Assembly (NCBI GenBank): GCA_964016885.1
Contig: OZ024743.1
Location: 104,904,001-104,968,000 of the forward strand
Origin: Eledone cirrhosa
Taxonomy: Eukaryota
Direction of reading: 5' to 3'
Length of the DNA: 64,000 nucleotides
How positions within the stretch are numbered: the stretch's first letter is position 1; every line of letters starts with the position of its first letter. Below are positions 10,711 through 63,933 of the stretch, one piece after another. The position numbers were made by a program, and so were the translations under genes. The notes beneath the pieces were generated by a model. The model saw nothing but the letters and a program-made list of their open reading frames with translations, was not told the DNA's origin and searched no databases.

Positions 10711-10854
10711 TTTCAACGTATTAAAACTTTGATCGAAATGTAAACGAATGTAGAATTATGTTCGCTATCACCGTTACGAATGGCTGTAGGCTGTTTATTG
10801 CTCATTGAAATTGCTAATTATTAGCATAGAACAACAGCGACTGTAAAAACAAAT

Positions 10855-13800
10855 ACAGTTGCAACAACAATAACAGCAACAACAACTACAGTTGCAACAA
10901 CAATAACAGCAACAACTACTACAGTTGCAACAACAATAACAGCAACAACAACTACAGTTGCAACAACAATAACAGCAACAACAACTACAGTTGCAACAAC
11001 AATAACAGCAACAACTACTACAGTTGCAACAATAATAACAGCAACAACTACTACAGTTGCAACAACAATAACAGCAACAACTACTACAGTTGCAACAACA
11101 ATAACAGCAACAACTACTACAGTTGCAACAACAATAACAGCAACAACTACTACAGTTGCAACAACAATAACAGCAACAACTACTACAGTTGCAACAACAA
11201 TAACAGGAACAACTACAGTTGCAACAACAATAACAGTAACAACTACTACAGTTGCAACAACAATAACAGCAACAACAACTACAGTTGCAACAACAATAAC
11301 AGCAACAACAACTACAGTTGCAACAACAATAACAGCAACAACTACTACAGTTGCAACAACAATAACAGCAACAACAACAACTACAGTTGCAACAACAATA
11401 ACAGCAACAACAACTACAGTTGCAACAACAATAACAGCAACAACAACTACAGTTGCAACAACAATAACAGCAACAACAACTACAGTTGCAACAACAATAA
11501 CAGCAACAACTACTACAGTTGCAACAACAATAACAGCAACAACAACTACAGTTGCAACAACAATAACAGCAACAACAACTACAGTTGCAACAACAATAAC
11601 AGCAACAACTACTACAGTTGCAACAACAATAACAGCAACAACAACTACAGTTGCAACAACAATAACAGCAACAACTACTACAGTTGCAACAACAATAACA
11701 GCAACAACTACTACAGTTGCAACAACAATAACAGCAACAACAACTACAGTTGCAACAACAATAACAGCAACAACAACTACAGTTGCAACAACAATAACAG
11801 CAACAACAACTACAGTTGCAACAACAATAACAGCAACAACTACTACAGTTGCAACAACAATAACAGCAACAACATCTACAGTTGCAACAACAATAACAGC
11901 AACAACTACTACAGTTGCAACAACAATAACAGCAACAACTACTACAGTTGCAACAACAATAACAGCAACAACTACTACAGTTGCAACAACAATAACAGCA
12001 ACAACAACTACAGTTGCAACAACAATAACAGCAACAACAACTACAGTTGCAACAACAATAACGGCAACAACAACTACAGTTGCAACAACAATAACAGCAA
12101 CAACTACTACAGTTGCAACAACAATAACAGCAACAACAAATACAGTTGCAACAACAATAACAGCAACAACTACTACAGTTGCAACAACAATAACAGCAAC
12201 AACTACTACAGTTGCAACAACAATAACAGCAACAACAACTACAGTTGCAACAACAATAACAGCAACAACAACTACAGTTGCAACAACAATAACAGCAACA
12301 ACAACTACAGTTTCAACAACAATAACAGCAACAACTACTACAGTTGCAACAACAATAACAGCAACAACAATTACAGTTGCAACAACAATAACAGCAACAA
12401 CAACTACAGTTGCAACAACAATAACAGCAACAACAACTACAGTTGCAACAACAATAACAGCAACAACTACTACAGTTGCAACAACAATAACAGCAACAAC
12501 AACTACAGTTGCAACAACAATAACAGCAACAACAACTACAGTTGCAACGACAATAACAGCAACAGCAACTACAGTTGCAACGACAATAACAGCAACAACA
12601 ACTACAGTTGCAACGACAATAACAGCAACAGCAACTACAGTTGCAACGACAATAACAGCAACAACTACTACAGTTGCAACAACAATAACAGCAACAACTA
12701 CTACAGTTGCAACAACAATAACAGCAACAACAACTACAGTTGCAACAACAATAACAGCAACAACTACTACAGTTGCAACAACAATAACAGCAACAACTAC
12801 TACAGTTGCAACAACAATAACAGCAACAACTACTACAGTTGCAACAACAATAACAGCAACAACTACTACAGTTGCAACAACAATAACAGCAACAACTACT
12901 ACAGTTGCAACAACAATAACAGCAACAACTACTACAGTTGCAACAACAATAACAGCAACAACAACTACAGTTGCAACAACAATAACAGCAACAACAACTA
13001 CAGTTGCAACAACAATAACAGCAACAACTACTACAGTTGCAACAACAATAACAGCAACAACAACTACAGTTGCAACAACAATAACAGCAACAACTACTAT
13101 AGTTGCAACAACAATAACAGCAACAACTACTACAGTTGCAACAACAATAACAGCAACAACAACTACAGTTGCAACAACAATAACAGCAACAACTACTACA
13201 GTTGCAACAACAATAACAGCAACAACTACTACAGTTGCAACAACAATAACAGCAACAACTACTACAGTTGCAACAACAATAACAGCAACAACAACTACAG
13301 TTGCAACAACAATAACAGCAACAACTACTACAGTTGCAACAACAATAACAGCAACAACAACTACAGTTGCAACAACAATAACATCAACAACAACTACAGT
13401 TGCAACAACAATAACAGCAACAACAACTACAGTTGCAACAACAATAACAGCAACAATAACTACAGTTGCAACAACAATAACAGCAACAACAACTACAGTT
13501 GCAACAACAATAACAGCAACAACTACAGTTGCAACAACAATAACAGCAACAACAACTACAGTTGCAACAACAATAACAGCAACAACAACTACAGTTGCAA
13601 CAACAATAACAGCAACAACAACTACAGTTGCAACAACAATAACAGCAACAACTACTACAGTTGCAACAACAATAACAGCAACAACAACTACAGTTGCAAC
13701 AACAATAACAGCAACAACAACTACAGTTGCAACAACAATAACAGCAACAACTACTACAGTTGCAACAACAATAACAGCAACAACTACTACAGTTGCAACA

Positions 13801-16127
13801 ACAATAACAGCAACAACAACTACAGTTGCAACAACAATAACAGCAACAACAACTACAGTTGCAACAACAATAACAGCAACAACAACTACAGTTGCAACAA
13901 CAATAACAGCAACAACAACTACAGTTGCAACAACAATAACAGCAACAACAACTACAGTTGCAACAACAATAACAGCAACAACAACTACAGTTGCAACAAC
14001 AATAACAGCAACAACAACTACAGTTGCAACAACAATAACAGCAACAACAACTACAGTTGCAACAACAATAACAGCAACAACAACTACAGTTGCAACAACA
14101 ATAACAGCAACAACTACTACAGTTGCAACAACAATAACAGCAACAACAACTACAGTTGCAACAACAATAACAGCAACAACAACTACAGTTGCAACAACAA
14201 TAACAGCAACAACTACTACAGTTGCAACAACAATAACAGCAACAACAACTACAGTTGCAACAACAATAACAGCAACAACAACTACAGTTGCAACAACAAT
14301 AACAGCAACAACTACTACAGTTGCAACAACAATAACAGCAACAACAACTACAGTTGCAACAACAACAACAGCAACAACAACTACAGTTGCAACAACAATA
14401 ACAGCAACAACTACTACAGTTGCAACAACAATAACAGCAACAACTACTACAGTTGCAACAACAATAACAGCAACAACAACTACAGTTGCAACAACAATAA
14501 CAGCAACAACAACTACAGTTGCAACAACAATAACAGCAACAACTACTACAGTTGCAACAACAATAACAGCAACAACAACTACAGTTGCATCAACAATAAC
14601 AGCAACAACAACTACAGTTGCAACAACAATAACAGCAACAACTACTACAGTTGCAACAACAATAACAGCAACAACTACTACAGTTGCAACAACAATAACA
14701 GCAACAACAACTACAGTTGAAACAACAATAACAGCAACAACAACTACAGTTGCAACAACAATAACAGTAACAACTACTACAGTTGCAACAACAATAACAG
14801 CAACAACAACTACAGTTGCAACAACAATAACAGCAACAACAACTACAGTTGCAACAACAATAACAGCAACAACTACTACAGTTGCAACAACAATAACAGC
14901 AACAACAACAACTACAGTTGCAACAACAATAACAGCAACAACAACTACAGTTGCAACAACAATAACAGCAACAACAACTACAGTTGCAACAACAATAACA
15001 GCAACAACAACTACAGTTGCAACAACAATAACAGCAACAACTACTACAGTTGCAACAACAATAACAGCAACAACAACTACAGTTGCAACAACAATAACAG
15101 CAACAACAACTACAGTTGCAACAACAATAACAGCAACAACTACTACAGTTGCAACAACAATAACAGCAACAACAACTACAGTTGCAACAACAATAACAGC
15201 AACAACAACTACAGTTGCAACAACAATAACAGCAACAACTACTACAGTTGCAACAACAATAACAGCAACAACTACTACAGTTGCAACAACAATAACAGCA
15301 ACAACAACTACAGTTGCAACAACAATAACAGCAACAACAACTACAGTTGCAACAACAATAACAGCAACAACAACTACAGTTGCAACAACAATAACAGCAA
15401 CAACTACTACAGTTGCAACAACAATAACAGCAACAACATCTACAGTTGCAACAACAATAACAGCAACAACAACTACAGTTGCAACAACAATAACAGCAAC
15501 AACTACTACAGTTGCAACAACAATAACAGCAACAACTACTACAGTTGCAACAACAATAACAGAAACAACTACTACAGTTGCAACAACAATAACAGCAACA
15601 ACAACTACAGTTGCAACAACAATAACAGCAACAACAACTACAGTTGCAACAACAATAACAGCAACAACTACTACAGTTGCAACAACAATAACAGCATCAA
15701 CAACTACAGTTGCAACAACAATAACAGCAACAACAACTACAGTTGCAACAACAATAACAGCAACAACTACTACAGTTGCAACAACAATAACAGCAACAAC
15801 AACTACAGTTGCAACAACAATAACAGCAACAACAACTACAGTTGCAACAACAATAACAGCAACAACTACTACAGTTGCAACAACAATAACAGCAACAACT
15901 ACTACAGTTGCAACAACAATAACAGCAACAACAACTACAGTTGCAACAACAATAACAGCAACAACTACTACAGTTGCAACAACAATAACAGCAACAACTA
16001 CTACAGTTGCAACAACAATAACAGCAACAACAACTACAGTTGCAACAACAATAACATCAACAACAACTACATTTGCAACAACAATAACAGCAACAACTTC
16101 TACAGTTGCAACAACAATAACAGCAAC
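10855..16127. repeat. Tandem array of a 33-bp unit ACAGTTGCAACAACAATAACAGCAACAAC(A/T)ACT, ~160 copies
   Basis: ACAGTT recurs every 33 bp (10855, 10888, 10921...); two main variants; occasional 30- or 36-bp units. Confidence 0.97.
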
Positions 16128-16145
16128 ACCACCACGACCACCACC

Positions 16146-16899: not shown

Positions 16900-17591
16900 A
16901 GGTTTAGGGTTAGTGTTAGGTTTAGGTTTAGAGTTAGAGATTGGGTTTGGTGTTAGAGTTAGTGTTAGATTTAGGTTTAGGGCTAGAGATTGGGTTTGGT
17001 GTTAGGGTTAGTGTGAGGTTTAGGGTTAGATATTGGGTTTGGTGTTACGGTTAGTGTTAGGTTTAGGTATAGGGTTAGAGATTGGGTTTGGTGTTAGAGT
17101 TAGTGTTAGGTTTAGGTTTAGGTTTATGGTTAGAGATTGGGTTTGGTGTTAGGGTTAGTGTGAGGTTTAGGGTTAGATATTGGGTTTGGTGTTACGGTTA
17201 GTGTTAGGTTTAGGTTTAGGGTTAGTGTGTGGTTTGGTGTTAGTGTTAGGTTTAGGTTTAGGTTTAGGTTTAGGGTTAGAGATTGGGTTTGGTGTTAGGG
17301 TTAGTGTGAGGTTTAGGGTTAGATATTGGGTTTGGTGTTACGGTTAGTGTTAGGTTTAGGTTTAGGGTTAGAGATTGGGTTTAGTGTTAGAGTTAGTGTT
17401 AGGTTTAGGTTTAGGGTTAGTGTGAGGTTTGGTGTTAGGGTTAGTGTTAGGTTTAAGTTCAGGGTTAGCGATTGGGTTTGATGTTAGAGTTAGTGTTAGG
17501 TTTAAGTTTAGGGTTAGCGATTGGGTTTGGTGTTAGAGTTAGTGTTAGGTTTAGGTTTAGGGCTAGAAATTGCGTTTGGTGTTAGAGTTAG
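16900..17591 (+). repeat. Telomere-like (TTAGGG-derived) degenerate hexamer minisatellite
   Basis: Hexamers TTAGGG/TTAGGT/TTAGTG/TTAGAG/TTGGGT/TTGGTG in ~42-48 bp higher-order blocks. Confidence 0.85.
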
Positions 17592-25614: not shown

Positions 25615-27735
25615 CTATCCGTTAGGGTATAATGTGGGGCTGTAATACAGGAAGGTTTTGTGCAATTTATGTTTACAAGCCAAAATTGCCTCAGATTTTT
25701 TGTTTAAGATGTGGTCATTGGCGTAGAGTATTTCCAGGGATTCAGCGGAGCAGTGGTCACATGGTCTTTTATTTCCGTTATACGATCTAGCCTTAGCTAA
25801 GATCTCCCAGTGTAACCTATATTGGGTGTGGTTGTCTTTTAGACTCCAGATATAAGCTGAAAGTGACGTCATATTCCTTCTTAAAGGGTTAAAAAAGAAT
25901 GGGTAAGCATGTAAAGACGCTGCTTGAATCTATTGGCGGTTAACCCTATGTAGGCCCTACGGGACGTGGTTGTGTCAACCTTACATTTGTATACAATGTT
26001 ACTAGAGAGGCATTTCCCGAATAGGGGGCAGTCAACCCGATTCCTACAATTACAGTTAGTACTAGCTACATGGTTTTATACGTGTTCATACGGCTAGATA
26101 ATTTAGCTAAATTTGAAGCAGTGATGTTATGTGCAAGGTTAGGAGTTGTAGAGCAAGACATTTTAAAGGTATTTCTATTAAAAATGTTATTATGCTGGGG
26201 GGAAATGCTTCATAATAAGGGAAAGAAAGATCTTAGCTAATGGTGTGGCCACCTCCATATTATATGGTAGGTTATACCATATAATGCGTCGGGATCTATT
26301 TTTCTTAGGTCTATGCTCATACTGGGTATATGCTACCTTATAGACAAATACATTCCGAGCAGGAGCTTCATTGTAATATGTGGAATGGTCGGTGAAAATA
26401 TGCTCGTTTGTAGATAGACGGGAAAGCCTCAAAGAAACGTTTCTTACCAGGTTCTTGGTTATGCTGGCAGGATGGTTAGAATGTTTACTTATGTAATTAG
26501 ATGTATCATTCGGCTTTCTATACGGGTAGTGCAAGCTATTCGATAAATTGAGGGTAATGTCGAGGTAATTAACGACTGAGAGGTTGTCCTCAACCTGTAT
26601 GGAGAGGTTGAAGCCTTTAACGAAGGCTGTGAGTTCTTTTCTGAATCTATCGCAAGCCCGTGGGCCGCACTTTCTCATGGGCAAAAGACCGTCATCACGG
26701 TACAAACCACCGCCCACGTTGGGGAATTCTTCCTTGATAGAGAAAAGAAGGAAAAGGCCGATAAGATCAGTAACCTCCGCAGAATCGCTGGCGCCCACAC
26801 TCACGTCGAATGGGGTACTATTAGATTTTTAAATCCAAATAGAGTCGTCGAAATTAATCACCGACTTACGGGCATTGAGGATGACATCATCTCCGAAATC
26901 CTTAACCACCGTGAGCGTTTTAGCGAAATTGATAGCTCTAAGAAGCAGTGGTAAAGTGATGGAGGAGTATTAATTATTGATGTCGAATTGGATAAAACGG
27001 CAATGTTCCTTGTTGCATATGCCGTTGAACCAATCAATCACCGCGAAAGAATTGTTCCGCAGTGCAAGAGGGGCCAAGCTTCTAATTTCAGGTATAATTC
27101 TATCTAAAATCCTTTTACTAAGTCTACCTAAATCGGACTTCGTAGGGTTAATAAGCCGAATAGAGGGGTTGTTCGGGAAATTGGATTTGTGATCCTTCAG
27201 GGTAAAGTGGGAGAAATAGGGTCCAGAGGTTCAGTCCGGTCCAGGATGTTGAGATCAGAGGTGATTTTAAACCCAGCATCGTTGATGTCATTAATGACAC
27301 TCCAATTAGTTTTACAGTAACCCTTAGTTTCAGCATTATGTAGAAGTTGATGGTAAGTATTGTGTTCCACTTGATATAGATTGCCAGTTTTGTTGGAGTG
27401 GACGTGCACGGCATTAGAATCCTTAATAGAACGAATTCTATTCTTCATGTCCTGCTGGAAGGAATTACTCCTATTCCGAAATTTGATACTCCGTATGAAT
27501 TCCAAGACATCATTTTCGAAGGGTAGCAAAGCTGGGTTACACGGAGGGTTATTGTAGGTTTTAAACCCAAATTTATCATGTTTGTTGTCCGCTTTTCCCT
27601 GATTATCGAAATAAAAGGCACGCCAACGCAACCTTTTAATGAACGAGTCTGTTTTCTGTATCAGGAGTTTTAGGTATGTCTTCCTGCTTGGTACGGGAAT
27701 GTTCTTTGTAGAAATATTCAGATGTTGTTTCAGAA
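25615..27735 (-). pseudogene. Second Naiad-type PLE, full-length ORF broken by stops and frameshifts
   Basis: STKNIPVP..FIKRLRWRAFYFD, HSNKTGNLY, IRLINPTKSDLG, GASDSAEVTDLIGL, GLYRDDG, NYLDITL, CNCRNRVDCPL, CDHC..E, CKH. Confidence 0.9.
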
Positions 27736-27779
27736 TGATGAATATAAGTCAATAGAGTGCTTAACCGAGGGAGCCAAAT

Positions 27780-32056: not shown

Positions 32057-32613
32057 TATAAACTTAAGAAAATTAATAATGAGAAGATAAGACAACGAAC
32101 AGAAAATTGGCAAAAAGAAAAACGATTTTTTAAGGGGAAACCTTAAAAAACCTTAATTACGTATACCACAGTATATGTGGTTTTCGATGTATGTTTGTGT
32201 AGATATGTTAGCTTGTCGGCATATATTTGGATATATATGTATATTCATCCACCACTTTATCCTATCAATCCCACCAACATTTTTTACTACCCCCTCCCCT
32301 ACATTCACCTGCACAATCACCACCTGCCTTTCCTGTTATAAATTTTCTCTCTCACTCACATATTGAAGAGTACAAGTTATGAAATAGACTGGCTTACGCA
32401 CATGGTTGGTCGAAATAATTAGAATTCTGACTCTAACCAGCGCGCTAACTATATATCGCTGTCTAATCGCTGGTTGGCATTTAATGTCCGGAAAATGTTT
32501 TAGGCACTACCATTGTTACTAACGCACTATTTCTCGCCATGGGACTTGGAGACTAGAGGCGAATGCTATCCTTCTATTGTACAGCGATTGGAGACTGAAC
32601 TTTTCTAAAAACC

Positions 32614-34260
32614 ATGGTGAAAACCATGTTTGGTGAAAAGGCTGAGAAGGAATTGAACAATATCCCGCCTTCAAATTATACAATACGCAGAAGAATCCTA
32701 GATATATCGAAAAATATTGAAGACAATGTTCAGAAAAAGCTTAAGAATTCTAATTTTGCTTTAACCGTGGATGAATCCACTGATATCAGTAATAAAAGTC
32801 AATTGCTTGCATTTGTATGTTTTATTGACGAGAATGAAATAATCAATCAATTTTTGTGCTGTATAGAAATGTCCACAACTAGAAGAGGTCAAGATATTTT
32901 TGATTTGATAACAGGCTACCTCAAAGAAATGAATTTGTCTTGGAAGTCGTATGTTGGCATTTGCACCGATGGAGCCCCATATATGACAGGCTGTATTAAA
33001 GGATTTGTATCCTTCGTAGAAAAAGAAAATCCAAATCTCATTCGTACTCATTGCTTTCTACATAAAGAAGTTCTTGTTTCAAAAATATTGCAGGAAGATT
33101 TAAAGATTGTGTTACATCAAGTTGTTGGAATGGTCAATTATATAAAAAGTAGGCCATTCACGATTATTTGTACAACTGCACAAAGAGATGGACTCTCAGC
33201 ATGTTAAGTTATTAATGCACACTGAGGTTCGATGGCTGTCGAAAGGCAAAGTACAAAATCGTGTTCCCGAACTGCACAAGGAATTACTATCATTTTTGCT
33301 CCAGGAAAAGTAGGAGAAATTCTGTGAATACCTTAGTTGCGAATTTTAGATGTCTAAAATGGAATACCTAACAGAAATATTTAGTGAACTAAATAAAACA
33401 AACAGTAGTGTGCAAGGTAAAAACGAAAATATTCTGACTTCAACAGACAAGCTAGTTGCCCTCAAAAATAAAATTGTGATTTGGAAAAAAAGAGCAATCA
33501 CTGGCAACCTTGGTATGTTCCCTTTATTGCATTCTACCTGCATTAGAGAAATGATCCCTATTGTGGTTACTCATCTGACAGCCCTGGACGAAAGCATCAA
33601 CAATTACTTTCCGTCATTAAAGACAGAAAAGTATGATTGGATTAGAGATCCTTTCATAAATCATTCTTCCAACATTGAACTTGAGTTACAGGAAGAAGAA
33701 GAATTGGCCACCCTTTCTAGTGACCGAGGGTTAAAATAAAAATATTCGACTCTGCCCATTGATTCATTTTGGATTTCAATTCAAGAGAAGTATCCCATAT
33801 TATGTAAAAGAGCTTTAGCAATTTTATTACAATTTTCAACTTCTTATATATGTGAATTAGAATTCTCAACATTAAACAACATCAAAAACAAGAAGCGTGA
33901 GAGATTACGTACAACGGAAGAAGAAATGAGGGTGTGTCTGTCTCATATTCGACCAAACATTGGGGAAATTATGAATAAAAGCCAGGCACAAATTTCTCAC
34001 TAAAGAAGCCAGCTATTTGAGTGATGAAATTCGAAACACTGCAATAAAGTAAGTTCATAGCTGTATTTTTCTTTAGTTAGTTTGAGTCATTCTATGTGTC
34101 TATGACTAGTCTGAGTCTACGGTTGTATGCGGTCTATGATTTGCTATGTTTTTATTTTGTAAAATTTAAATATATTTCATATATATTTAGCCAGGTGTGC
34201 CGGTATTTTTTCATGTGTTCCAAGGTGTGCCGTTGGCTAAAAAAAGGTTGAGAACCACTG
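32614..34260 (+). mobile_element. Decayed hAT transposon (Buster/Charlie, ZBED5/SCAND3-like transposase) with right TIR
   Basis: LTVDESTD, ICTDGAP, THCFLH; after a frameshift HTEVRWLSKG, WIRDPF, FSTSYICE; stops at ~33349 and 33739; TIR AAGGTTGAGAACCACTG at 34244-34260; left TIR not found. Confidence 0.9.
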
Positions 34261-34428: not shown

Positions 34429-34483
34429 ACTGCCTGAAGAGGTCACAGTCAAAGATGTCTGTCACTGAAATATATATAGCAGT
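34429..34483 (+). ncRNA. Minimal type I hammerhead ribozyme (family F)
   Basis: ACTGC-CTGAAGA-GGTCACAG[10 nt]CTGTCACT-GAAA-TATAT-ATA-GCAGT. Confidence 0.8.
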
Positions 34484-35110: not shown

Positions 35111-35261
35111 TATTTGTTTCGACACACGATTTCATATAAAAAACCACGCAAAACTATATATATAAACTGAATACTAACCAATACTATTACTAATTGTCAC
35201 TTATTCCTAATTAAACTATTTTTCACTGTGAACAATTTGTCAGCATTTTCTTTTCCGTTTA

Positions 35262-35329
<68 letters not shown>

Positions 35330-37175: not shown

Positions 37176-37830
37176 ATTACAATACACTCCCGCATATATA
37201 TATATGTGTGTATATATATGTAATAAAATATTACAATACTTTACTTATTTATTCAAAATTTACCTAACCATTAATATATTAAACGAGACCAAATGACTCA
37301 TAATTCACACATTAAACTGATGTTTATGTCTCTTCAATATGTTTCCAACACTTGGCTGTTTATAACCTCCAGTCTATTAGTTATGTAATTTATATGTTCC
37401 ACCTGAACAGTGTCATTTCTTTCTTCATCTAAATATGTCTACCTATTAGTATGTCATATATATATTTTGTTACTTTTACTAAATTCTCATTATTAATATT
37501 ATTATTGAAGACTTTGGATTGACAGAGGTGTTAAAACACGTATTTGCTCCAAAGTTTTACGTTCTGAGTTCACCCCCCCCCCCCGATTACCAGTAAGTAC
37601 TATATTTTGTTATAATAAATGTTATAGTATATATATATATACATATATCAGATTAGAGGAAACATCACGGGCGCTCTATCTCAAAATTATTTTTGAAAAG
37701 CATTAGAAATACGCAACCGGTAAAATCTTAAAACTAAACTGAATACTAACCAATACTTATTACTAATTTATACTTATTCCTAATTAAACTATTTTTCAAT
37801 GGGAAAAATTTGTCAGCATTTTCTTTTCCT

Positions 37831-37869
<39 letters not shown>

Positions 37870-39519: not shown

Positions 39520-39948
39520 CGTTTCTGAATTTGTTTAGCACGATTCTTTATCTGAAAACGTGTGTTGAAACCGATATTGTTATACTTTGGGAGGGTCTTG
39601 TTGCCAATAAGAAACACACGCACCAGTTGCTTTCACTTCAATTTATTATAATAAATTTATAAATTTATAAATTTCCGGTTGGTTGGTTGGTTCCACAACC
39701 AGATGATTGTTTATATATTGTCAAACTTCTTTCGTCACACATTCTGTGACCTCTTCAGTGACTGGGGATTCTTTTCTTTGTTTTTGTGCCTCTCCTTTGT
39801 TCTGTCCTACACCATCTTGTTTTTGTGTGTGTTGTGTGCTTAGTTTGCGCATGTGTTACATCCGGGTGTCTGTGTGTGTTTATATTTGTTTATTTATTTG
39901 TTTATTTACATGTTACTGGTTGGTTGTTTGTTCTATGTGCGTGTGTGT

Positions 39949-48111: not shown

Positions 48112-48343
48112 TGTTTTCGTGTATGTGTGGTTGTATGGGTAGTCTTATTTTATTTTTATTTTTCCTTTCCTTCTTCCTTCTCCAGCCTCACTTTCATATA
48201 GCTTGCTTTTTTTGTTTTTAAGATCCAAATTCAATAAACAAACCAGGATTTTTTCATTCTGAGGATTGAAAGCAAAACCTTTTGCTTTTAAGAAACCACT
48301 GGTAAATGGAATAATTGCCTTATGTTGTTTATTACATAATAAT

Positions 48344-48984: not shown

Positions 48985-51270
48985 AATGATATTAAATAAA
49001 CGGAAACTATATTTATAAAACCATATTTATTCTATTATATATATTTCAAAGGTACCAAAACTTTGGTACGCTTTCATCAGATAAAATACAAAGTTTGTTT
49101 TATAAATTTTGACATAACCAAGAAAAGATACCTTAACGGTTCAAGTTTTTCTTGGATAGTGAAATGGGGTTGAGGTATAGGGCTTAAAAAGCGTTATTTT
49201 AGACACTATGCAGAATTAAAATAATTAGGATATATGTATGTATGAGTAGGAAGAAGAAAAAAAGAAAGAAGAGCTTGTATTTACGTTAATTTAAAAGGAA
49301 TTAACAATTTGCGGGAATGGTGGAATATGATTCCAGAATTTAAATATATTTAGCTATATTATGAGTTATAATATTGTATATATAATCAATTAGATTATAT
49401 GAAGAATTATGGTTGTAAGTAGATTTTATCTTATTACATTACAATAGGTTGTACGTATATCTATATAGATTAATAATTGTGCATGTATAAGTATTATAGA
49501 AATAGAAATAATTCACAATTATTTGTTGTTTACATTTCTGATATGAAGGCTTGATTTTGCATTTTACATAAAAAAAAACGTAGTTCAAGTTGTAAGAGGT
49601 GAACAATTTGTAGATTCAAATATTTTGTTCCAACATTGAAAATGTTTTCAGAATATTGTTAATTTAGCGAAGTTATATAGTTTATCATACATATTATATT
49701 ATAATATAATGTTTATATTTGCACGATTGAAAAAGGAAAGATAACTCCAATCTTGTTTGTTAACCGTTAAATTTGATGAATGATTTACTCAGAAAATATA
49801 TAGAGAAAATTATATATTATTTTGTGTGAGATTAATTTCAATTATATATTATTTTAGTCGAAAGATGTGTGAAAGTTTGAATATCAAAAGAAGAGGAAAA
49901 AAGTAATGTGCATTTCGAAGAACTATCGTAAAGAAGATAAACTTTCAGAATGTCAATTAAAGATTATCAATCTACATCTAAAAAAATATATTTAGAGTGG
50001 TATCATTAAGAAAATAATGTCAAAAGGTAAAAATAGTAAAAAATTATATTAAAAAATTAAAAAATTAATGTCAAATGGTAAAAATAGTAGAAATATTAAA
50101 AAAATTAAGAAGGAAGATCATTTAAAAAAATTTAAATTTAAATTTTTAAAGAAAATAGGATCATTTTGAAGGTGTATAAGATATAGTCAAGTGTAATGAA
50201 TATCATAAATTAAACATACTTCTGAAAGTGGAATTTTGGCGATGTCTGCAACTAGAAAATAATTCTGTTTTAAGATTAATAGAGTTTTGACAGTTAATTA
50301 TATAACAAATTTCCTCGATACACAAGTTACAGAATCTTGAGAAAGCCATATTTCGGTATGCAGAGGCTTTCGAAATCGTCCCCCAAGATATTGAATAGTC
50401 TATATTGTTGTCTTTTAAGTTCCAAATTAAATGTGAAAGTGAAGTGGAAGATTTTTATCGGATCTATTAAATGTGTGTTTATGGTTATACCAGCGTTCTT
50501 TGAATTTTGTAGAAGTGGCACCAATATAGTTAAATACTTTGTCTCTAGTTTTAACTGTGCGTTTATGAATTACGTTTTTGTCTAAGCAATTATTTTGTAA
50601 AGGGCGGTTTGATTTAATTCTTCAGTTATATTTTCTGGAGTTGTTCGGAACGGTACTATTATTCTGAATATTGCTGTTAGAAATATTATTATGTCTATCT
50701 TGGTTAGGTTGGTTAGGGTTTAAATTTAAGTTTCTATTATTAATTCTATTTATATTTTGTGCTATGTTCATAGTAGTAGGGTAGGATAGTTTTATAGTGT
50801 GTCTGTTAAAAATAGAGTGGTATCTGTGGGCTTTAGGAAAACATTTATCTAGTGCTTAAAAAAATAGCTTTGCTAAAGGTATTTTAACGCTTAATGAGAA
50901 TGGGGGAGAGTACCAAATAATATTTCTAGTTCTAAGTTAAATTGTTTATTATTATTATAATTAATTCTAGGATGATTTGTCATGTTATTGTTATCTATGT
51001 ATTTAACTTTATTCGAGTATCCTGCTCTATGTAAAGCTTCATTATAATATTCTGACTTATCATCAAAAATATTTTTATTAGCAGAGATGCGTGAAATCAG
51101 TTGTTGGACGCTATTGACAATAGTGTTTTTAATATTTCTCGGATGATTAGAATTGAAACTTACGTAATTTAGATTTTCATTAATTTTATGGAATGGATAG
51201 TATAGACCTGTGCTAAGGTTTAAGGTTACATCTAAGAAGTTAACTATTTTGTAATTATTCTCGCTTTCTA
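48985..51270 (-). mobile_element. Third Naiad-type PLE, 5'-truncated and decayed; family A HHR at 49028-49088
   Basis: [34 protein letters not shown] matches the 3761-5977 protein; EN remnant ends CNLC..E..CRHR at ~50230; HHR TATTTTAT-CTGATGA-AAGCGTACC[8 nt]GGTACCTTT-GAAA-TATAT-ATA-ATAGAATA. Confidence 0.85.
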
Positions 51271-51291
51271 AATTAATATATATATATATAT

Positions 51292-51790
51292 AAGAGAGTA
51301 TTGAAGTTTGCTTGAAGCATTGTGGAATAATAAGGTAAATTTCTTTAAGTCGTTTGGAAGCCTCGACAATGCAGATGGGTAAATCTCCGGGTAACAAGAT
51401 CCGGTGGTGGAGAGAGAGATGTAAGTGACTGTACGTTGAGATACGCGGCGTGTATAAGACTGCAACGTGTAGAGGAATGAAGGAAAGAGCGTAAAGGATA
51501 AAAATAAAAATAATAACACGAGAAAGAGTTACCTTGGGAGAGATTTAATTGTCCCTATATATTTAGGATTCACATCCATCAACTGGGTTTTTTCCGGATG
51601 GGGGGGGGGGAGGTTGTCTGTCGGAAAGGTGCGAAACGTATCCTCCGCTGTTCGTTGTTTTCAATATCTGAGGTATTCAGCAGAGCGCGCGTGCGCGTGA
51701 AATGGGGTCGGTCAGGCAGAGGTCAGAGGTCGAAGTAGTTCTTTCAATTGTGGAAGTGGGGTGGCGCTAGCTGTCAGTCCATTCTCTGCC
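51292..51790 (-). mobile_element. 3' end of the PLE family seen at 6348-8400
   Basis: GAGAGT(A/G)TTGAAGTTTGCTTGAAGCATTGT...ACAATGCAGATGGGTA shared with 6350-6780. Confidence 0.8.
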
Positions 51791-52027: not shown

Positions 52028-52961
<934 letters not shown>

Positions 52962-52969
52962 TATATATA

Positions 52970-54070
52970 TAACGAAGGAGTTGTGGTAAGGAACCAGATG
53001 GACCATAATGCACCAGAGTACTCAATACTTAGCGTACTAGAGTGGGTAATAGGAGAAAGTATGATCCCGACGGCTGAGCTGAAGCCGTTTCGACGGCTAT
53101 TTCTGGACTAAAGTAAGAGTTTTTTAGTCTGGTAAATAAAGCCGAACTTTTCAAGGGGTACTTCCTTATATGGGAAGATTGTAGTTGTCAAGAGGATTGG
53201 CCAAAATTTGTAGCAGACACAGAAAAGTCTATCATGGCAGTGGGTGCGGGGTGGGGGTGGCTGAACTTGCCTGTATAACAATAGGGGAGTAGGTAGATCC
53301 GGTCAAGCGTTGAAGGTGAAATCTACACGGCAAATTCTAAGGAAAGTGTATGAAAGTAGGCCAGGGGAGGTCGGCGAAAAAAGGTTTCTTTAGAAAATGG
53401 AGGAGGGACGTTATAGAAAAGGTAAATCAAATGAGATTAGGAGACAAAGAAAAAATATAATAAAGAATATAATAAAAAATGAGAGACAGATATATCAGAA
53501 TGTAAGATTGGAAAGTGAGATGTGAAATAAAACAGAAACTAAGGAGTCTAACACAGCTGCTATATTAGTTGGTTCTGCTTTTTCGGCCAATGCTATAGAA
53601 TGAGTTGCTAGATGAGAATTATTGAAAATTTACAATGGGGTATTAATGCTATATTAATGCTATCTGTAAGTTACTGGGGTGGGGGTACTGAGGCTAAAGA
53701 GGCCCGATGGGCTGCCTCGGGGTAGGCGAAAGGGGAAAAAACCCAAAGGAACGAACGAGGAAGAAGTTGGGTGGTGGAAGAAGTGATAGGAGGAGACAAA
53801 GGGAAGAAGTAAAACATATTTTCTTCTCCCCTTTGTCTCCTCCTATCACTTCAGCCACCTCCACCCCGCACCCACTGCCATGATAGACTTTTCTGTGTCT
53901 GCTACACATTTTGACCAATCCTCTTGACAACTACAATCTTCCCATATAAGGAAGTACCCCCTTGAAAAGTTCGGCGATTTATTTACCAGACTAAAAAACT
54001 CTTACTTTTAGTCCAGAAATAGCCGTTGAAACGGCTTGAGCTCTGCCGTGGGGTTATACTTTCTCCTATA
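52970..54070. mobile_element. Family K element with ~220 bp inverted arms
   Basis: 53049-53265 is mirrored by 53852-54069. Confidence 0.8.
53064..53159 (-). ncRNA. Type I HHR, U3-A8 variant with long stem II (family K)
   Basis: ACCCC-TTGAAAA-GTTCGGC..TATTT..GACTAAA[loop]TTTAGTC..AAATA GCCGTC-GAAA-CGGC[9 nt]GCCG-TC-GGGAT; mirror copy at 53956-54054(+) lacks C17. Confidence 0.72.
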
Positions 54071-54082
54071 TATATATATATT

Positions 54083-54625
54083 GTATTGAAAAAGGACCAT
54101 AGAATGAACCAAATTCTACGAACACACGATATCATAAAGAGCAAAAGACAATCCAAGTCAATGAAAAACATCTTAACACATGCCAAAGTACTGCCAACCA
54201 CAACAACGAAACCCACAGTAAAAAAATGCGATAGACCCAACTGTGGCATTTGCATCAACCTAATAGAGGGTTCGGAATTCTATTTCAAAGATGGACAACG
54301 TTTTATAGTAAAACACAATTTCACATGTGCATCGGAAAATCTAATATATGTATTAACTTGTTCAGGTTGTCGAGAACAATACATAGGCCAGACCAAAAAC
54401 AGCCTCCGCCAACGCATGACTGTCCATAGATCCCAAATTAAAATACGGGAATACAGGAAAATACCACTGAGTGAACACATTGATACCTGTGCCGCCCAAA
54501 GTCATCCCAACTTCAGAATCTTTCCCCTCTACAAATTTAAAGATAATGCCACCCACACCCAGCGCATCAGCAAGGAATCTTACTTCATTAACAAATACGG
54601 ACCCCGTCTAAACACTTCTCCCTAA
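54083..54625 (+). CDS. Neptune-type PLE C-terminus: Cys-rich linker + GIY-YIG endonuclease, 5'-truncated at (TA)n
   Basis: CDRPNCGIC...FTCASENLIYVLTCSGCREQYIGQTKNSLRQRMTVH...EH...KESYFI..P.LN. Confidence 0.85.
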   Translation, partial: VLKKDHRMNQILRTHDIIKSKRQSKSMKNILTHAKVLPTTTTKPTVKKCDRPNCGICINLIEGSEFYFKDGQRFIVKHNFTCASENLIYVLTCSGCREQYIGQTKNSLRQRMTVHRSQIKIREYRKIPLSEHIDTCAAQSHPNFRIFPLYKFKDNATHTQRISKESYFINKYGPRLNTSP

Positions 54626-55374: not shown

Positions 55375-55830
55375 TCTCAATCTTGGCGCAAAACCAATTT
55401 GTTATCCACATGACCTCTACCGACCAATCAAAATTGTTTTGACCAAGAATTTTTGCTGGAGCCACTTTTTTAACATAAAAACAGTCTTGGCGCAAAATCA
55501 ACTTTTTACATTCACATGACCTCTACCGACCAATCAAAATTGTTTTGACCACAAGCATTTTTGCAACACAAAAATAACGCTGGAGCCACTTTTTTAACAT
55601 AAAAACAGGTAGAATTCCCAAAACTAATCAGATCAGAGCAAACAGCACGGACACTCTATCTCAAAATTATTTTTGAAAAGCATTTAGAAATGCGCAACCG
55701 GTAAAAACTTAAAAACTTAAAACCACAACTGAATACTAACCCATACAATCACTAATACTCTTTTATTCCTAATTAAACCTTTTTGCAACTGTGAACAATT
55801 TGTCAGCATTTTCTATTCCGTTTACCAATA
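55375..55830. repeat. Unclassified dispersed repeat ending in (TA)n
   Basis: AACTGAATACTAACC...TTCCTAATTAAAC...AATTTGTCAGCATTTTC is shared with 35165-35267 and 37650-37840; internal direct repeat 55407/55514. Confidence 0.75.
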
Positions 55831-55842
55831 TATATATATATA

Positions 55843-56554
55843 TATATTATAATTGAATATAAAAGAAAAACGAACACAGACATATACATATATGCATTCA
55901 AATCGCAAGGGACCAGATTCGCTAAGGTGAAAAGAATACTAACTATAGACAATTGGGTCTGCCAGTCTCAATTTAAGAAAAAATCAAGAAAATAAATACA
56001 AACCGTAATTGTTGTAACTACCAATCACCCAGACAACTTGGTGTTGTTTCGCAAAATTAATTGTGAATAGAATTACAAATTTATGCTCATCAGTGGGCGA
56101 TAAACTAGTATCCTAGACACTTCTAAGTAAATTAAGTAACTGAATAGTGTGCTATATATATTTATAGCGCACATGGTGTCTTAGCGTGTCTTACAAACTT
56201 ACACCACTAAAAATAGCAGCTAGGTTTATTCGACATTTGAAATAGCTCAACAAGTTAACGGAGCCGAATATATCAAAGGTATATATTGAGTTAGTAACTC
56301 AAAATAGTCTCTTACAACAAAATAGCTCTAAGAAAGAGATATTTCCGAGCCGTATATTATAATTGAATATAAAAGAAAAACGAACGCAGACATATACATA
56401 TCTGCGTTCAAATGTGATTTGAACGCAGATATGTATATGTCTGTGTTCGTTTTTCTTTTATATTCAATTATAATATACGGCTCGGAAATATCTCTTTCTT
56501 AGAGCTATTTTGTTGTAAGAGACTATTTTGAGTTACTAACTCAATATATACCTT

Positions 56555-56560
<6 letters not shown>
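55843..56560. mobile_element. ORF-less HHR element family L: 510-bp partial tandem plus ~145 bp fold-back
   Basis: AATTGAATATAAAAGAAAAACGAAC at 55851 and 56361; palindrome 56271-56560. Confidence 0.82.
56026..56099 (-). ncRNA. Canonical type I hammerhead ribozyme (family L)
   Basis: CGCCCA-CTGATGA-GCATAAATT...AATTTTGC-GAAA-CAAC ACCAA GTTG-TC-TGGGTG. Confidence 0.88.
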
Positions 56561-56605
<45 letters not shown>

Positions 56606-57487: not shown

Positions 57488-57669
57488 TGTATGTATGTAT
57501 GTATGTATGTATGTATGTATGTATGTATGTATGACAAAGGGCGGACTAACTCATAAGAGTCAACGGTCATCCCCCAAAAGTGTCTAAATATATATATACA
57601 CATGTACATATGTATGTATATGTATATGTGTATATACATGGGTGCATGTGTATGTATATGCGCGGGAAC

Positions 57670-58000
57670 ATAGAAATAGTCGGGCTGGACACCCGATCGC
57701 GTGGTTAAACCACTGGGAGTGAAGGACCCCTCGCCTTGTCAGGGCATTCTTCTAGGAGAAGGCAACTCAGGAAACTCCGATATAAAACATGCAGCTCAGT
57801 AGTTACCGATGATGTTGATCTGTTCTTCTTTTCGGGTTATAGCTACTGTCACCCAGAGAGTGGGATTGGCTCAGTGCACAGTCTTTCCTCACTTTAAAAA
57901 ATATCTTCACACCCAGGCATTGCACGATAGAATTAATTAATAATTATTAATAATGGTATATCGTGCAATGGCCATACTCGATAACGAGGGGGCAGCCATC

Positions 58001-58033
<33 letters not shown>

Positions 58034-59605
58034 TGTATGTATGTATGTATGTATGTATGTATGTATCCAATGATGTTAACTTGTTCTTCTTTTTGGTAAA
58101 TATCATCTTGGTTAAGAGAGTGGGACTGGCTTTGTGCAGTGCCTTTGCTCACTATAAAAGCTTCACGGCACAGGCATTGCCTTATATCTGGAGATCTCTC
58201 TGCACTTGTCGTCACATGGTACCATGGACCCAGCACTATGTGTCAGTAATTGTCACAAGTGTAGTGTTTGTACCAGAGTTTTCAAGTCGCTGGCTGGACT
58301 AAAAAGTCACTCGTTCAGCGCATCGGTAGGGGTTCTCCTACATGGATATAAAGTAGTGACCATACTCGAAAACGAGTTGGCAGCCACCATGTATGTATGT
58401 ATCTATATATGTATGTATGTGTGTCAACCCGTCAAAGGGCGGAGGAACTCAGGAGTGTCAACGGCCGTCCAATAAAGTTTATTTTTTTTATTTGTGGAGT
58501 GAGAGACTCCTATTATTTATTAAGACATCTCTCTAGGAGAAAGTCACTCTCATCTAACATCGGCGAGTTCATTTGCATCCAACTATGTAGGCCAGTTCTT
58601 CTTTTTGTGCAATTGCGTTCGATGCTCTGAGAGTGGGCTTGGCCCTGTGCAAAGCTTCAAGCACAGGAATCACTTGATATGTGACATGTTTTGCGATGCA
58701 GGGTATAGCTGGCTATAGGCAAGACTCTACCAGGACTAAAAAGTGACGTCCGTGATACTCATGCTTAAGTATCAAGCGATGGCATTACTCGAAATCTTTA
58801 CCATCATGTGATCGCTGGAGTGACTTCAAGCCATCATTCGAAGGGCACACCTTAGGGAACACAGTGCATTTGACACCAACGCTGGATAAGATTCATCGTT
58901 ATTATGTATGTATGTATGTATGTATGTATGTATGTATGTATGTATGTATGTATGTATGTATGTATGTATGTATGTATGTATGTATGTCAGGTCACCAGTT
59001 GGTGCTACTGGTAACATGTATCCCAGTACAACCTGTCTCATGGTCGGGTCGTTGGCGACTAAACTGGCAACCCCACCAAGGTTTCTTGGTGAGGAGGGTG
59101 ACTTTGGACATCCTGCAGGACTAAAAACACAACCTGTCAAAGGGCAAATGAGCTCTTAAGAGTCAATGGTCATCAAAAATCATCGGGAGAGATGACCCCT
59201 TAGCCTTTGTCAAGGCAGAATTCTAGGAGAAGGAAAACTCTGATATAATACCTGCCACCCTGATGGTATCCAATGATGTTGACTTGTTCTTCTTTTTGGT
59301 AAATATCATCTTGGTTAAGAGAGTGGGACTGGCTTTGTCCAGTGCCTTTGCTCACTATAAAAGCTTCACGGCACAGGCATTGCTTTATATCTGGAGATCT
59401 CTCTGCACTTGTCGTCACATGGTACCATGGGCCCAGCATTATGTGTCAATGATTGTCACAAGTGTAGTGTTTGTACCAGAGTTTTCAAGTCGCTGGCTGG
59501 ACTAAAAAGTCACACTCGTTCAGCGCATCGGTAGGGGTTCTCCTACATGGATATAAAGTAGTGGCCGTACTCGAAAACGAGTTGGCAACCACCATGTATG
59601 TATGT
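57670..59605 (+). mobile_element. Cluster of non-autonomous RTE-derived retroposons separated by (ATGT)n tails
   Basis: RTE-5'UTR-like TCTAGGAGAAGGAAAACTC joined to a C2H2 remnant CSVCTRVFKSLAGLKSH and 3' GGCCGTACTCGAAAACGAG..(ATGT)n; copies at ~57670, 58065, 58425 and 58990. Confidence 0.75.
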
Positions 59606-60167
59606 ATATAATAATGTGTAAATATCTGCTTGCTTGAGTGTGTCTCTGTGTGATTGTAGTGGGTAGAATCCAACCTTATGTTTGGGTGACAAGTATTATG
59701 CTGTGGTTCTCTTGAAGTTGTATATATTTCGACATATGTAAACATACAGCAAAAGAAATTTACACTCCAGCGGCCACCTTTCAATCGATATTACCTTCAT
59801 GTTCTGCTGTGCACCAATCACCAAGAAGATCTTACACTATTAGACTATGTCTTTAGACACTTGACATAAATGAGTGTTGTTTATATCAAGATTAAAACAT
59901 ATATTGTAAATTACAGTAGATTTGAAAATGTATGTAAAAAAATCACCAAATAAACAAACCCAAATCGAGAAGAAACAAACAAGCAAGAGTAAAATAAAAG
60001 TATTAAGTCATTCCTAATCAAGGAAGCTATAATTTAGAGTTACCAGCTAGAGAAAATAAGCACAAAAAAATTCGGGTAAGTTTTAGAGAACGATAAAAGA
60101 TGTTATCTAAGACTATTTACTATTAGCAACATAAGCATATCAAAAGAAGTTAGTGTAATATTTATGA

Positions 60168-61821: not shown

Positions 61822-61866
<45 letters not shown>

Positions 61867-62032
61867 TAGTATATCTACCAACATATGTATACAGATGTAT
61901 ACCCATGCTAGCAAATATAGATGTTATGTCTTAGTACCTTTGTGGTTCTATGCAGGGGGATGCAGAACAATTATATGAAAGACGTAAAATAAGAAAATTT
62001 TAAAAATTAAAAATTAACTTACTAAAATTTTC

Positions 62033-62114
62033 ACTCCAACTAATTAGTTTCTGTAAGGGAATAAATATAGTTACATAATGTAACTACAGAGAATTCCTTA
62101 CTTCATCAGGGAGT
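62033..62114 (-). ncRNA. Type I HHR (family M); second copy 62572-62650 is cut within stem I
   Basis: Reverse complement of the 63206-63287 fold. Confidence 0.8.
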
Positions 62115-63205
62115 CTATTCTCAGCTAAGTTCCCAGGCAATGCGCGGACACTAGGAACCCATATAAAAATAATAATTCAGTGGATGGAATAAAGCTAGCG
62201 GGGACTAAATTCCAGAGCACTGAAAAAAATTCACTGCCTACTGGGTCAGTGGCAAATTCTAAAGAATCAATCACGTGACACTGAGGTCAATCAGTGAGGA
62301 GTGGGTTGGTATTATGACAAGTGCCTACTACTACTACCATGAACCATGGCAGTAAATTTTGGCAAGTTTTACTCAACAAATAATTTGGAGATAAATATAG
62401 AGAATTAGTATATCTACCAAAATATGTATACAGATGTATACCCATGCTAGCAAATATATATGTTATGTCTTAGTACCTTTGTGGTTCTATGCAGGGGGAT
62501 GCAGAACAATTATATGAAAGACGTAAAATAAGAACATTTTAAAAATTAAAAATTAACTTACTAAAATTTTCACTCCAACTAATTAGTTTCTGTAAGGGAG
62601 TAAATATAGTTACGTAATGTAACTACAGAGAATTCCTTACTTCATCAGGGATGAATCAATCACGTGACACTGATTGACCTCAGTGTCACGTGATTGATTC
62701 TTTAGAATTTGCCACTTACCCAGTAGGCAGTGAATTTTTTTCAATGCTCTGGAATTTAGTCCCGCTAGCTTTATTCCATCCACAAATTTTCTTATTTTAC
62801 GTCTTTCATATAATTGTTCTGCATCCCCCTGCATAGAACCACAAAGGTACTAAAACATAACATATATATTTGCTAGCATGGGTATACATCTGTATACATA
62901 TGTTGGTAGATATACTAATTCTCTATATTTATCTCCAAATTATTTGTTGAGTATAACTTGCCAAAATTTACTGCCATGGTTCATGGTAGTAGTAGGCACT
63001 TGTCATAATACCAACCCACTCCTCACTGATTGACCTCAGTGTCACGTGATTGATTCTTTAGAATTTACCACTGACCCAGTAGGCAGTGAATTTTTTTCAG
63101 TGCTCTGGAATTTAGTCCTCGCTAGCTTTATTCCATCCACTGAATTATTATTTTTATATGGGTTCCTAGTGTCCGCGCATTGCCTGGAAACTTAGCTGAG
63201 AATAG

Positions 63206-63287
63206 ACTCCCTGATGAAGTAAGGAATTCTCTATAGTTACATTACGTAACTATATTTACTCCCTTACAGAAACTAATTAGTTGGAGT
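63206..63287 (+). ncRNA. Type I HHR with long stem II (family M)
   Basis: ACTCC-CTGATGA-AGTAAGG..ATAGTTAC ATTAC GTAACTAT..CCTTACA-GAAA-CTAATTA-GTT-GGAGT; palindromic AACTAATTAGTT stem III. Confidence 0.82.
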
Positions 63288-63933
63288 GGAAATTTGAGTA
63301 AGTAAGTTAATTTTTAATTTTTAAAATTTCCTTATTTTACGTCTTTCATATATATATATACATACGTGCGCGTACCTTTACCTTCACATGCACACACATA
63401 TATCTGTATATATATAAAATTAAGTATGCGTGTGTGTGTGTCTGTGTATTACCTATAGGGGCCTACATCTTACGACCGATTTTCATGAATCTTTACAGGC
63501 TCATAGATTAGTCATCGGGAAGTGTTTTCTGTATATCAGCGTATCGTTTTGTTTTATTCCGGGGTCATTAAATATTCAAGAATAAGTCAACCAAATACAC
63601 AAAATCTTAGTTAAAACAAATTAAAGGGAAGTAAATCTTGATACCTAAGAAGCAGGACAGAAGGAATTATTTCCCGTTGATAGTTACTCTAATCGGTTAA
63701 AACAATTGCCACACAATGACAAATGACTTCTTGGTCGCTCTACCAGCTAAAAATACATTGAACAAAATATTTAAGTAAAATCATCTTGAGAAACATCAAC
63801 ACCATTCTATCATGAGACGCTACTAATGAAAAAGAACGAATGTAGGAGAAATCGTCAATCCATATAAACTTTCACCGTTAACTCAGCAGACGACATTACT
63901 TAATATCTACACTCCTACATCGATCTGTATGTT

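Follow-up and report, generated by a model that had tools for sequence, protein, structure and literature searches.

A hammerhead-bearing non-LTR retrozyme family of Eledone cirrhosa likely copied into (TA)n by Hydra-clade Penelope-like elements

In the present work, we describe a new family of animal non-LTR retrozyme, a class that is itself known, in the genome of Eledone cirrhosa. We refer to it as family L, i.e. the family of the 510-nt unit seen on the minus strand at 55843..56562 of the window (the whole 64-kb stretch of DNA that was analysed). In keeping with its class, the 510-nt unit is non-coding, low in GC (33%, the class lying below 45%) and equipped with a canonical type I hammerhead motif. 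We put the probability at roughly 70% that family L is copied into (TA)n by the reverse transcriptase (RT) and endonuclease of Hydra-clade Penelope-like elements (PLEs). The traits expected of a PLE dependant are found in its insertions: two fixed 3' ends, a tail at one end only, partial tandems, 5' truncation, an inverted 5' copy and a microsatellite target. In the accessible literature, the link between retrozymes and PLEs consists of their co-occurrence and, for Xenopus, of pseudo-LTR similarity. Family L points to a partner clade and offers two start sites together with a candidate hairpin for recognition, and with these named, the cis-signal and template of a retrozyme become addressable with an existing in vitro assay. 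Literature searches, mostly outside subscription papers, turned up no publication dealing with retrozymes of cephalopods or with a partner from the Hydra clade.

The insertion and its hammerhead

The insertion extends to 56562 and is bounded by (TA)n runs on both sides (55829..55847 at the 3' outer end, 56557..56601 at the outer end of the inverted arm), which are its putative target. Numbering the unit as q = 56414 minus the window position, so that q1-510 counts downward from 56413, the RNA-sense (minus-strand) layout is an inverted arm of q1-146, then q1-510, then q1-61. The forward arm (55843..56413, minus strand, 571 nt or 1.12 units) comprises one 510-nt unit (55904..56413) and a terminal redundancy of 61 nt (55843..55903), which ends at 3' site A and runs into (TA)n. 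The inverted 5' arm (56417..56562, plus strand) has its outer end at a second site, B, and likewise runs into (TA)n. The original prediction had described a unit start that repeats after 510 bp and then folds back for about 145 bp, and both features are real: the repeat (55843-55903 against 56353-56413) spans 61 nt at 95% identity, with three differences, and the fold-back (56268-56413 against 56417-56562) spans 146 nt at 99% complementarity, with one mismatch and a 3-nt spacer. Their order, however, has to be turned around, as the RNA sense places the inverted arm 5' and the 61-nt repeat 3'.

Sites A (q58-61 in this copy) and B (q146) delimit an 85-nt 'tail' (56268..56352, minus strand). A GCUC..GAGC hairpin directly after site A (56325..56351, minus strand) may serve as an RT-positioning element, and site B with the next such hairpin (56245..56287, minus strand) forms the part of the unit with a match in the pseudo-LTR of a Hydra-clade PLE, shortly before the start codon of that element. 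No ORF was found in the 510-nt unit, whose longest ATG-started frame has 33 aa. The window copy holds one ribozyme and could therefore not release a monomer. It lies within the TA terminus of a different repeat of very high copy number (55627-55851), which also occurs at 37647-37862 and 35165-35289. Besides, contigs from two runs of unspecified kind match 55400-56555, and family L is thus present in them.

The type I hammerhead motif, with stem I open, lies at 56024..56101 on the minus strand. In our motif scan, the core CUGAUGA (56093-56087) is followed by a stem II that opens, in the customary hammerhead numbering, with G10.1-C11.1, and then by GAAA; the core pattern CUGANGA/GAAA/UH and three helices are all in place, and the predicted cut falls after a GUC between 56032 and 56031, corresponding to q382/383. 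The intact core, the G10.1-C11.1 pair, the 5-bp stem III and the GUC site had all been anticipated correctly, while stem I, given earlier as 6 bp, counts 8 bp with one G-U pair included. The motif had also been called the best canonical hammerhead in the window, and this holds because it is the sole motif-scan match with a 5-bp stem III, all others having at most 3 bp. Minimal hammerhead-like motifs are found at 34429-34483 and 48252-48311 (both plus strand) and at 39696-39764 (minus strand). Rfam at its gathering threshold yielded no matches within the 64-kb window.

Across the genome, the core is kept in 109 of 158 distinct regions, 102 of them with GUC, in sets that were partly picked on the motif and in which some loci are counted twice. 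Within stem III, one pair occurs as A-U in 56 of 107 regions and as G-C in 41 of them. Among 29 sequences chosen by hand from family L and its sister family N, 91.6% of the cells in the hammerhead helices are paired, as against 28-39% in slid controls. Two-sided changes occur at three hammerhead pairs in these sequences; relatedness inflates this pairing signal, and the changes probably go back to a small number of events, one for each split between subfamilies.

Folded alone, the 96-nt ribozyme is predicted to do modestly better than shuffled sequences (z -2.1; 9 of 200 shuffles are equally good), and the 510-nt unit as a circle reaches a z of -5.2 against 60 shuffles. For the window copy, the predicted local pairing probability is 0.5-0.8 in stems I and III and merely 0.03 in stem II; a bulged extension of stem I is predicted as well. 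A competing hairpin that hides the core has a local probability of 0.29 and is preferred in the circular minimum-energy fold, and the active fold of the window copy is 2.7 kcal/mol less favourable than the ensemble (median 6.1 kcal/mol across 109 copies). A core-hiding fold is also mentioned for some mussel circles (Cervera and de la Pena 2020, PMC7229834), and eight of nine predicted Xenopus retrozymes are reported not to cleave in vitro (Li 2026, bioRxiv 10.64898/2026.07.22.740005). Given the local pairing of stems I and III, the monomeric cleavage that the original prediction had expected from the stable stem III is plausible, but the weak stem II and the competing hairpin speak against it.

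Copies and their ends

In the 3.0-Gb genome, a 17-mer spanning the cut site has 614 exact matches and a shifted, overlapping 17-mer has 700, whereas controls have none. The original prediction had stood or fallen with the unit not being a single copy lacking homologues, and that concern is thereby removed. First-look candidate copies of family L number 2329; they are dispersed across many chromosomes rather than arranged in arrays, and the best 29 full units show a mean likeness of 94%. We mapped the ends of 69 ribozyme-picked loci, taken from the first 100 listed 17-mer matches (30 minus one duplicate, plus 40), as well as of 28 tail-picked loci and 30 loci picked for length.

Among the 69 ribozyme-picked loci, the 3' end lies at site A (q52-63) in 36, at site B (q139-149) in 29 and elsewhere in four. 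With 65 of 69 at either site and 85 nt between the two, family L has two fixed 3' ends. TA repeats occur within 14 nt of the insertion in 52 loci of this set, and any target-site duplication is unreadable within (TA)n. An inverted 5' arm is found in 45 of the 69. Both outer ends fall on A/B in 29 of these two-armed loci, and 28 of the 29 have one of each (p 6e-8 against 0.5); in 16 of the 45, one outer end lies off A/B. The one-of-each rule recurs in 12 of 12 loci of the tail-picked set, which is biased to contain B, in six of seven length-picked family L loci and in 10 of 10 loci of the sister family M. As for the inner ends of the two arms, they coincide in just 2 of 45 two-armed loci, about what chance would give, and we therefore regard the arms as independent syntheses. 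Since ends at two sites are the footprint of a PLE 'tail', the inverted arm is likely a second cDNA arm rather than the result of snap-back. Twin priming by L1 offers an analogy.

The 5' ends of family L are spread round the unit and show no start-site peak. Forward arms exceed 510 nt in 32 of the 69 loci, which bears out the earlier suggestion that reverse transcription ran past one unit, and the longest among the 30 length-picked loci measures 1083 nt. The 5' ends do not accumulate at the cut site, which is the starting point of one of 14 additional sites from the first 100 matches listed; likewise, none of 71 arms stops there, in a set biased by having been picked on a word that spans the cut site. 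A start at q383-384 in two of the 30 length-picked loci is a weak hint at some cleaved templates. Two complete ribozymes in tandem exist at the family level only, in three of the 30 length-picked loci, and none of the 69 ribozyme-picked loci has two cut-site halves together with two exact cores. Rare variants carry no ADAR-type A-to-G excess (71 versus 124 T-to-C, p 0.38).

Segments within a locus differ at 4.5% (inverted) and 5.6% (direct) of positions, as compared with 9.0% and 8.3% between loci. Subfamily-diagnostic positions disagree within a locus in 88 of 1511 comparisons (5.8%), whereas 40% would be expected for copies paired at random. This low disagreement indicates a single subfamily as the source of both arms, which agrees with, but does not prove, their origin from a single RNA.

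Two sister families, N (about 510 bp) and M (about 557 bp), have the tail region in common with family L. Family N (loci L285-L314) is ∼75-79% alike in parts and has paired changes in stems I and III. Family M (loci L256-L284) possesses the same tail and follows the same A/B rule, with arms of up to 3.3 units; in most of its copies the ribozyme has a TTGATAA core, a stem I of merely ∼3 bp and a GUU-like site, so that this family may have spread with a weak ribozyme. At locus L103:1636-2127, a 94-nt internal piece (q439-22) is present four times over, possibly a product of RT slippage.

Relation to Hydra-clade PLEs and to known systems

The window ORF at 3761-5968 (minus strand) carries the motifs RWR, DKT, YRDD and CxCx5C and a C-terminal VVY..YVG, which are given as marks of the Hydra clade (Craig 2021, PMC8557442). 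The protein set that includes this ORF is very large, and PLE first-look candidates in the genome amount to 89832. Hydra-type PLE copies of several families lie at 3761-5968 (minus strand) with 2075-2268, at 50891-51544 (minus strand) with 48988-49119, and at 25615-27748 (minus strand), and minimal hammerheads with a palindromic stem III are seen in such copies at 2123-2187 and 49028-49088 (both minus strand). Pfam misses the RT and endonuclease of the window copies: it assigned no family to three Hydra-type ORF pieces, and GIY-YIG to a Neptune-type piece.

According to the accessible text of the same source, (TA)n is the target of almost all Hydra families, the clade includes Hydra-1_Obim of Octopus bimaculoides, and PLEs occur as partial tandems with an inverted 5' copy and a tail at one end only (Craig 2021, PMC8557442). 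Family L resembles these elements in each of these respects, i.e. the (TA)n target, the partial tandems, the inverted 5' copy and the one-end tail, and also in its type I hammerhead; with the Hydra-clade PLEs of this genome it further has in common a hairpin after each of two end sites. It differs from them in having no ORF and a full stem III in place of the minimal palindromic one. Its tail measures 85 nt and those of the Hydra families here ∼89-93 nt, while 30-40 bp is the length cited for PLE tails (PMC8557442).

When the whole family L unit was aligned to a Hydra pseudo-LTR, the local score was 38, which none of 1000 shuffles reached. The match covers 43 nt, is AT-rich and lies on site B and the hairpin that follows. 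Controls remained at chance against the unit, with the Neptune-type 3' end (that end only, as sequence downstream of the Neptune sites was not recovered), a 323-bp family and another hammerhead repeat reached by 685, 643 and 658 of 1000 shuffles, respectively. Under lenient scoring, 72 of 500 shuffles equalled the whole unit and 0 of 500 the post hoc stretch q40-200; we base the Hydra match on the stricter whole-unit scoring, not on this stretch. A looser alignment, over a stretch chosen after inspection, sets A on A and B on B.

Besides, the first Hydra family likewise has two end sites, at 193-197 and 286 in its reference, which are in register with A and B, and the second has end peaks at 219 and 308, with GCTC..GAGC after each, and a third, unexplained peak at 256. 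In family L, family M and these two Hydra families, a GCTC..GAGC stem (ACTC..GAGT at one site) begins ∼9 nt or less after both sites, and such a stem also precedes the start codon of a third Hydra family. The motif was defined post hoc, and its background is 115 of 18266 window positions (0.6%). Four upstream regions of the second Hydra family, mostly non-intact pseudo-LTRs, gave no significant match (76-137 of 300 shuffles). At locus L363, which belongs to that family, inspection by eye of the 370 nt preceding the ORF revealed no evident CUGANGA hammerhead.

An ORF-bearing parent of the unit was not found by blastn, profile, module pattern or two Hydra protein searches. The family L profile, run against 80 PLE loci, returned separately inserted sister copies and weak pieces only (E 0.0015 to above 1), and the module pattern gave 323 matches, of which the 30 inspected all belong to the clan of families L, M and N. 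Because the motif is post hoc and neither the 80 sampled PLE loci nor the 30 inspected module matches contain a close parent, we name the partner at the level of the clade. Judged from sequence, mobilisation of family L by Hydra-clade PLEs is likely.

Two other class assignments were rejected. An autonomous PLE is at odds with a unit that has no RT and GIY-YIG ORF and with the lack of any ORF in line with the arms, and a plant-type LTR retrozyme, with type III hammerheads in its LTRs, is at odds with the type I topology and with arms that stand head to head and are not LTRs. Animal non-LTR retrozymes, as far as their available descriptions go (PMC7229834; bioRxiv 10.64898/2026.07.22.740005), are like family L in being non-coding, low in GC, highly self-paired and furnished with a canonical type I hammerhead, and they co-occur with PLEs, whose enzymes they are proposed to use. 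The 510-nt unit exceeds the 170-400 nt circles of invertebrates and lies inside the 51-972 bp range of Li (2026). Family L consists mostly of dispersed insertions of 0.2-2 units, whereas arrays are described for the class; those available descriptions mention neither a pair of fixed ends nor insertions with two arms, and they name no partner clade. Chlamys elements such as MRC1 are non-coding PLE dependants, as family L probably is, with pseudo-LTRs and 3' similarity to autonomous families, yet they belong to green algae and, in the accessible account, most have no canonical hammerhead (PMC8557442).

Mechanism, template and alternative readings

For PAc, a Poseidon element of Anolis carolinensis, two RT start sites in vitro are reported to explain the PLE tail, both target strands are cut and extended, and ribozyme cleavage is dispensable in vitro (Frangieh 2024, PMC11167929). 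Like sites A and B, the PAc start sites are two in number, internal, downstream of the hammerhead and delimit the tail, and a dimer is predicted. PAc, however, is autonomous and belongs to another clade, and according to the accessible text either start site is used without strand preference in vitro, whereas two-armed copies of family L use one each. In family L, a PLE protein, probably a dimer, would nick both strands of the (TA)n target and bind the two hairpins of the unit; a cDNA would be primed at each of sites A and B of a single RNA molecule, and both cDNAs would grow towards the 5' end, through the ribozyme site and over more than one unit length, and be joined head to head. The near-perfect hairpin of the window copy is an exception that later homogenisation could have produced.

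As to the template, we give about even odds to a circle made by hammerhead cleavage and ligation, which would start from a rare two-ribozyme transcript, and to an uncleaved tandem transcript. Arms that pass an intact cut site and exceed one unit, the absence of a 5' start-site peak, the strongly self-paired unit and the existence of a few two-ribozyme loci (3 of 30 length-picked) favour the circle. The linear tandem transcript is favoured by arms that stop by 2.1 units, by the rarity of two-ribozyme loci and by the use of uncleaved RNA by PAc. More tentatively, and with the odds somewhat against it, the hairpins might form a two-hairpin start code (GCUC..GAGC, 85-90 nt apart) read by the subunits of a Hydra-clade PLE dimer, which would prime the two cut strands at different sites of a single RNA. 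Circles produced by the ribozyme, forming a clan of 510, about 510 and about 557 nt, would then have retained only this code and an upgraded hammerhead, and would be copied by rolling synthesis that sets out from each side of the break.

An unlikely but serious competitor to the retrozyme reading shares its PLE mobilisation and differs in origin and template: the unit would be a pseudo-LTR or deletion derivative of an unsampled autonomous PLE, copied from an uncleaved linear tandem with the hammerhead as a passenger and without any circle. PAc ribozyme mutants are reported to insert normally, with unprocessed RNA as the main substrate (Frangieh 2024, PMC11167929), and retrozymes are described as derived from PLE pseudo-LTRs (Li 2026, bioRxiv 10.64898/2026.07.22.740005). 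Such an origin would also suit the short arms of family L (at most 2.1 units), the rare two-ribozyme loci and a genome with 89832 PLE candidates from which few families were sampled. Yet in the mapped loci, arms that run past one unit stay in unit sequence, and the PLE ORF pieces in the flanks are not in line with an arm. Besides, the 5' ends spread round the unit with no start-site peak, and the long stem III is kept by paired changes though loop III varies widely in length, unlike in the Hydra elements here, whose ribozymes are minimal.

Far less probable is a retrozyme that owes its mobility to a LINE or to a different PLE clade, of the Neptune type. The genome is rich in Neptune-type elements, with 10597 GIY-YIG candidates, and these likewise end in (TA)n; among 50 such loci, four have a copy of a sister family at the Neptune end. 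Those four copies, however, vary in orientation within the TA run, the Neptune 3' end has no sequence match to the unit, and two fixed internal ends are described, in the accessible literature, as unique to PLEs. Equally improbable is a DNA-level element, be it a fold-back transposon, a MITE or a satellite, spread by recombination or snap-back synthesis with the hammerhead as a leftover. The A/B rule already refutes most of this reading, which would suit the near-perfect hairpin of the window copy (a single mismatch over 146 nt and a spacer of 3 nt, with the direct repeat different at 3 of 61) and the missing A-to-G editing signature but not unequal arms that end at different sites, inner ends that coincide in 2 of 45 loci, variable 5' truncation with fixed 3' ends, or copies across many chromosomes and not in arrays.

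The window harbours several further repeats. At 52028-52860 lies a second retrozyme-like family with a 323-bp unit in 2.3 copies and a 91-nt inverted arm, whose arms end ∼30 nt apart in (TA)n and whose minus-strand hammerhead has a TTGATAA core, i.e. a U3-A8 swap, a core variant that is tolerated. Another repeat, a common one that ends in (TA)n and whose 3' half resembles a hammerhead (52975-53160 and 53850-54070), sits beside a Neptune-type GIY-YIG ORF piece (54023-54625, plus strand). A 33-bp satellite is repeated 160 times at 10848-16128 (97% matches) and followed by a TTAGGG-like 49-bp repeat at 16904-17591, and pieces at 32599-33739 (plus strand) resemble, by eye, a hAT-type transposase. 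Finally, two clusters of partial-tandem and inverted repeats, at 61852-63352 and 57491-59625, may be further two-armed insertions.
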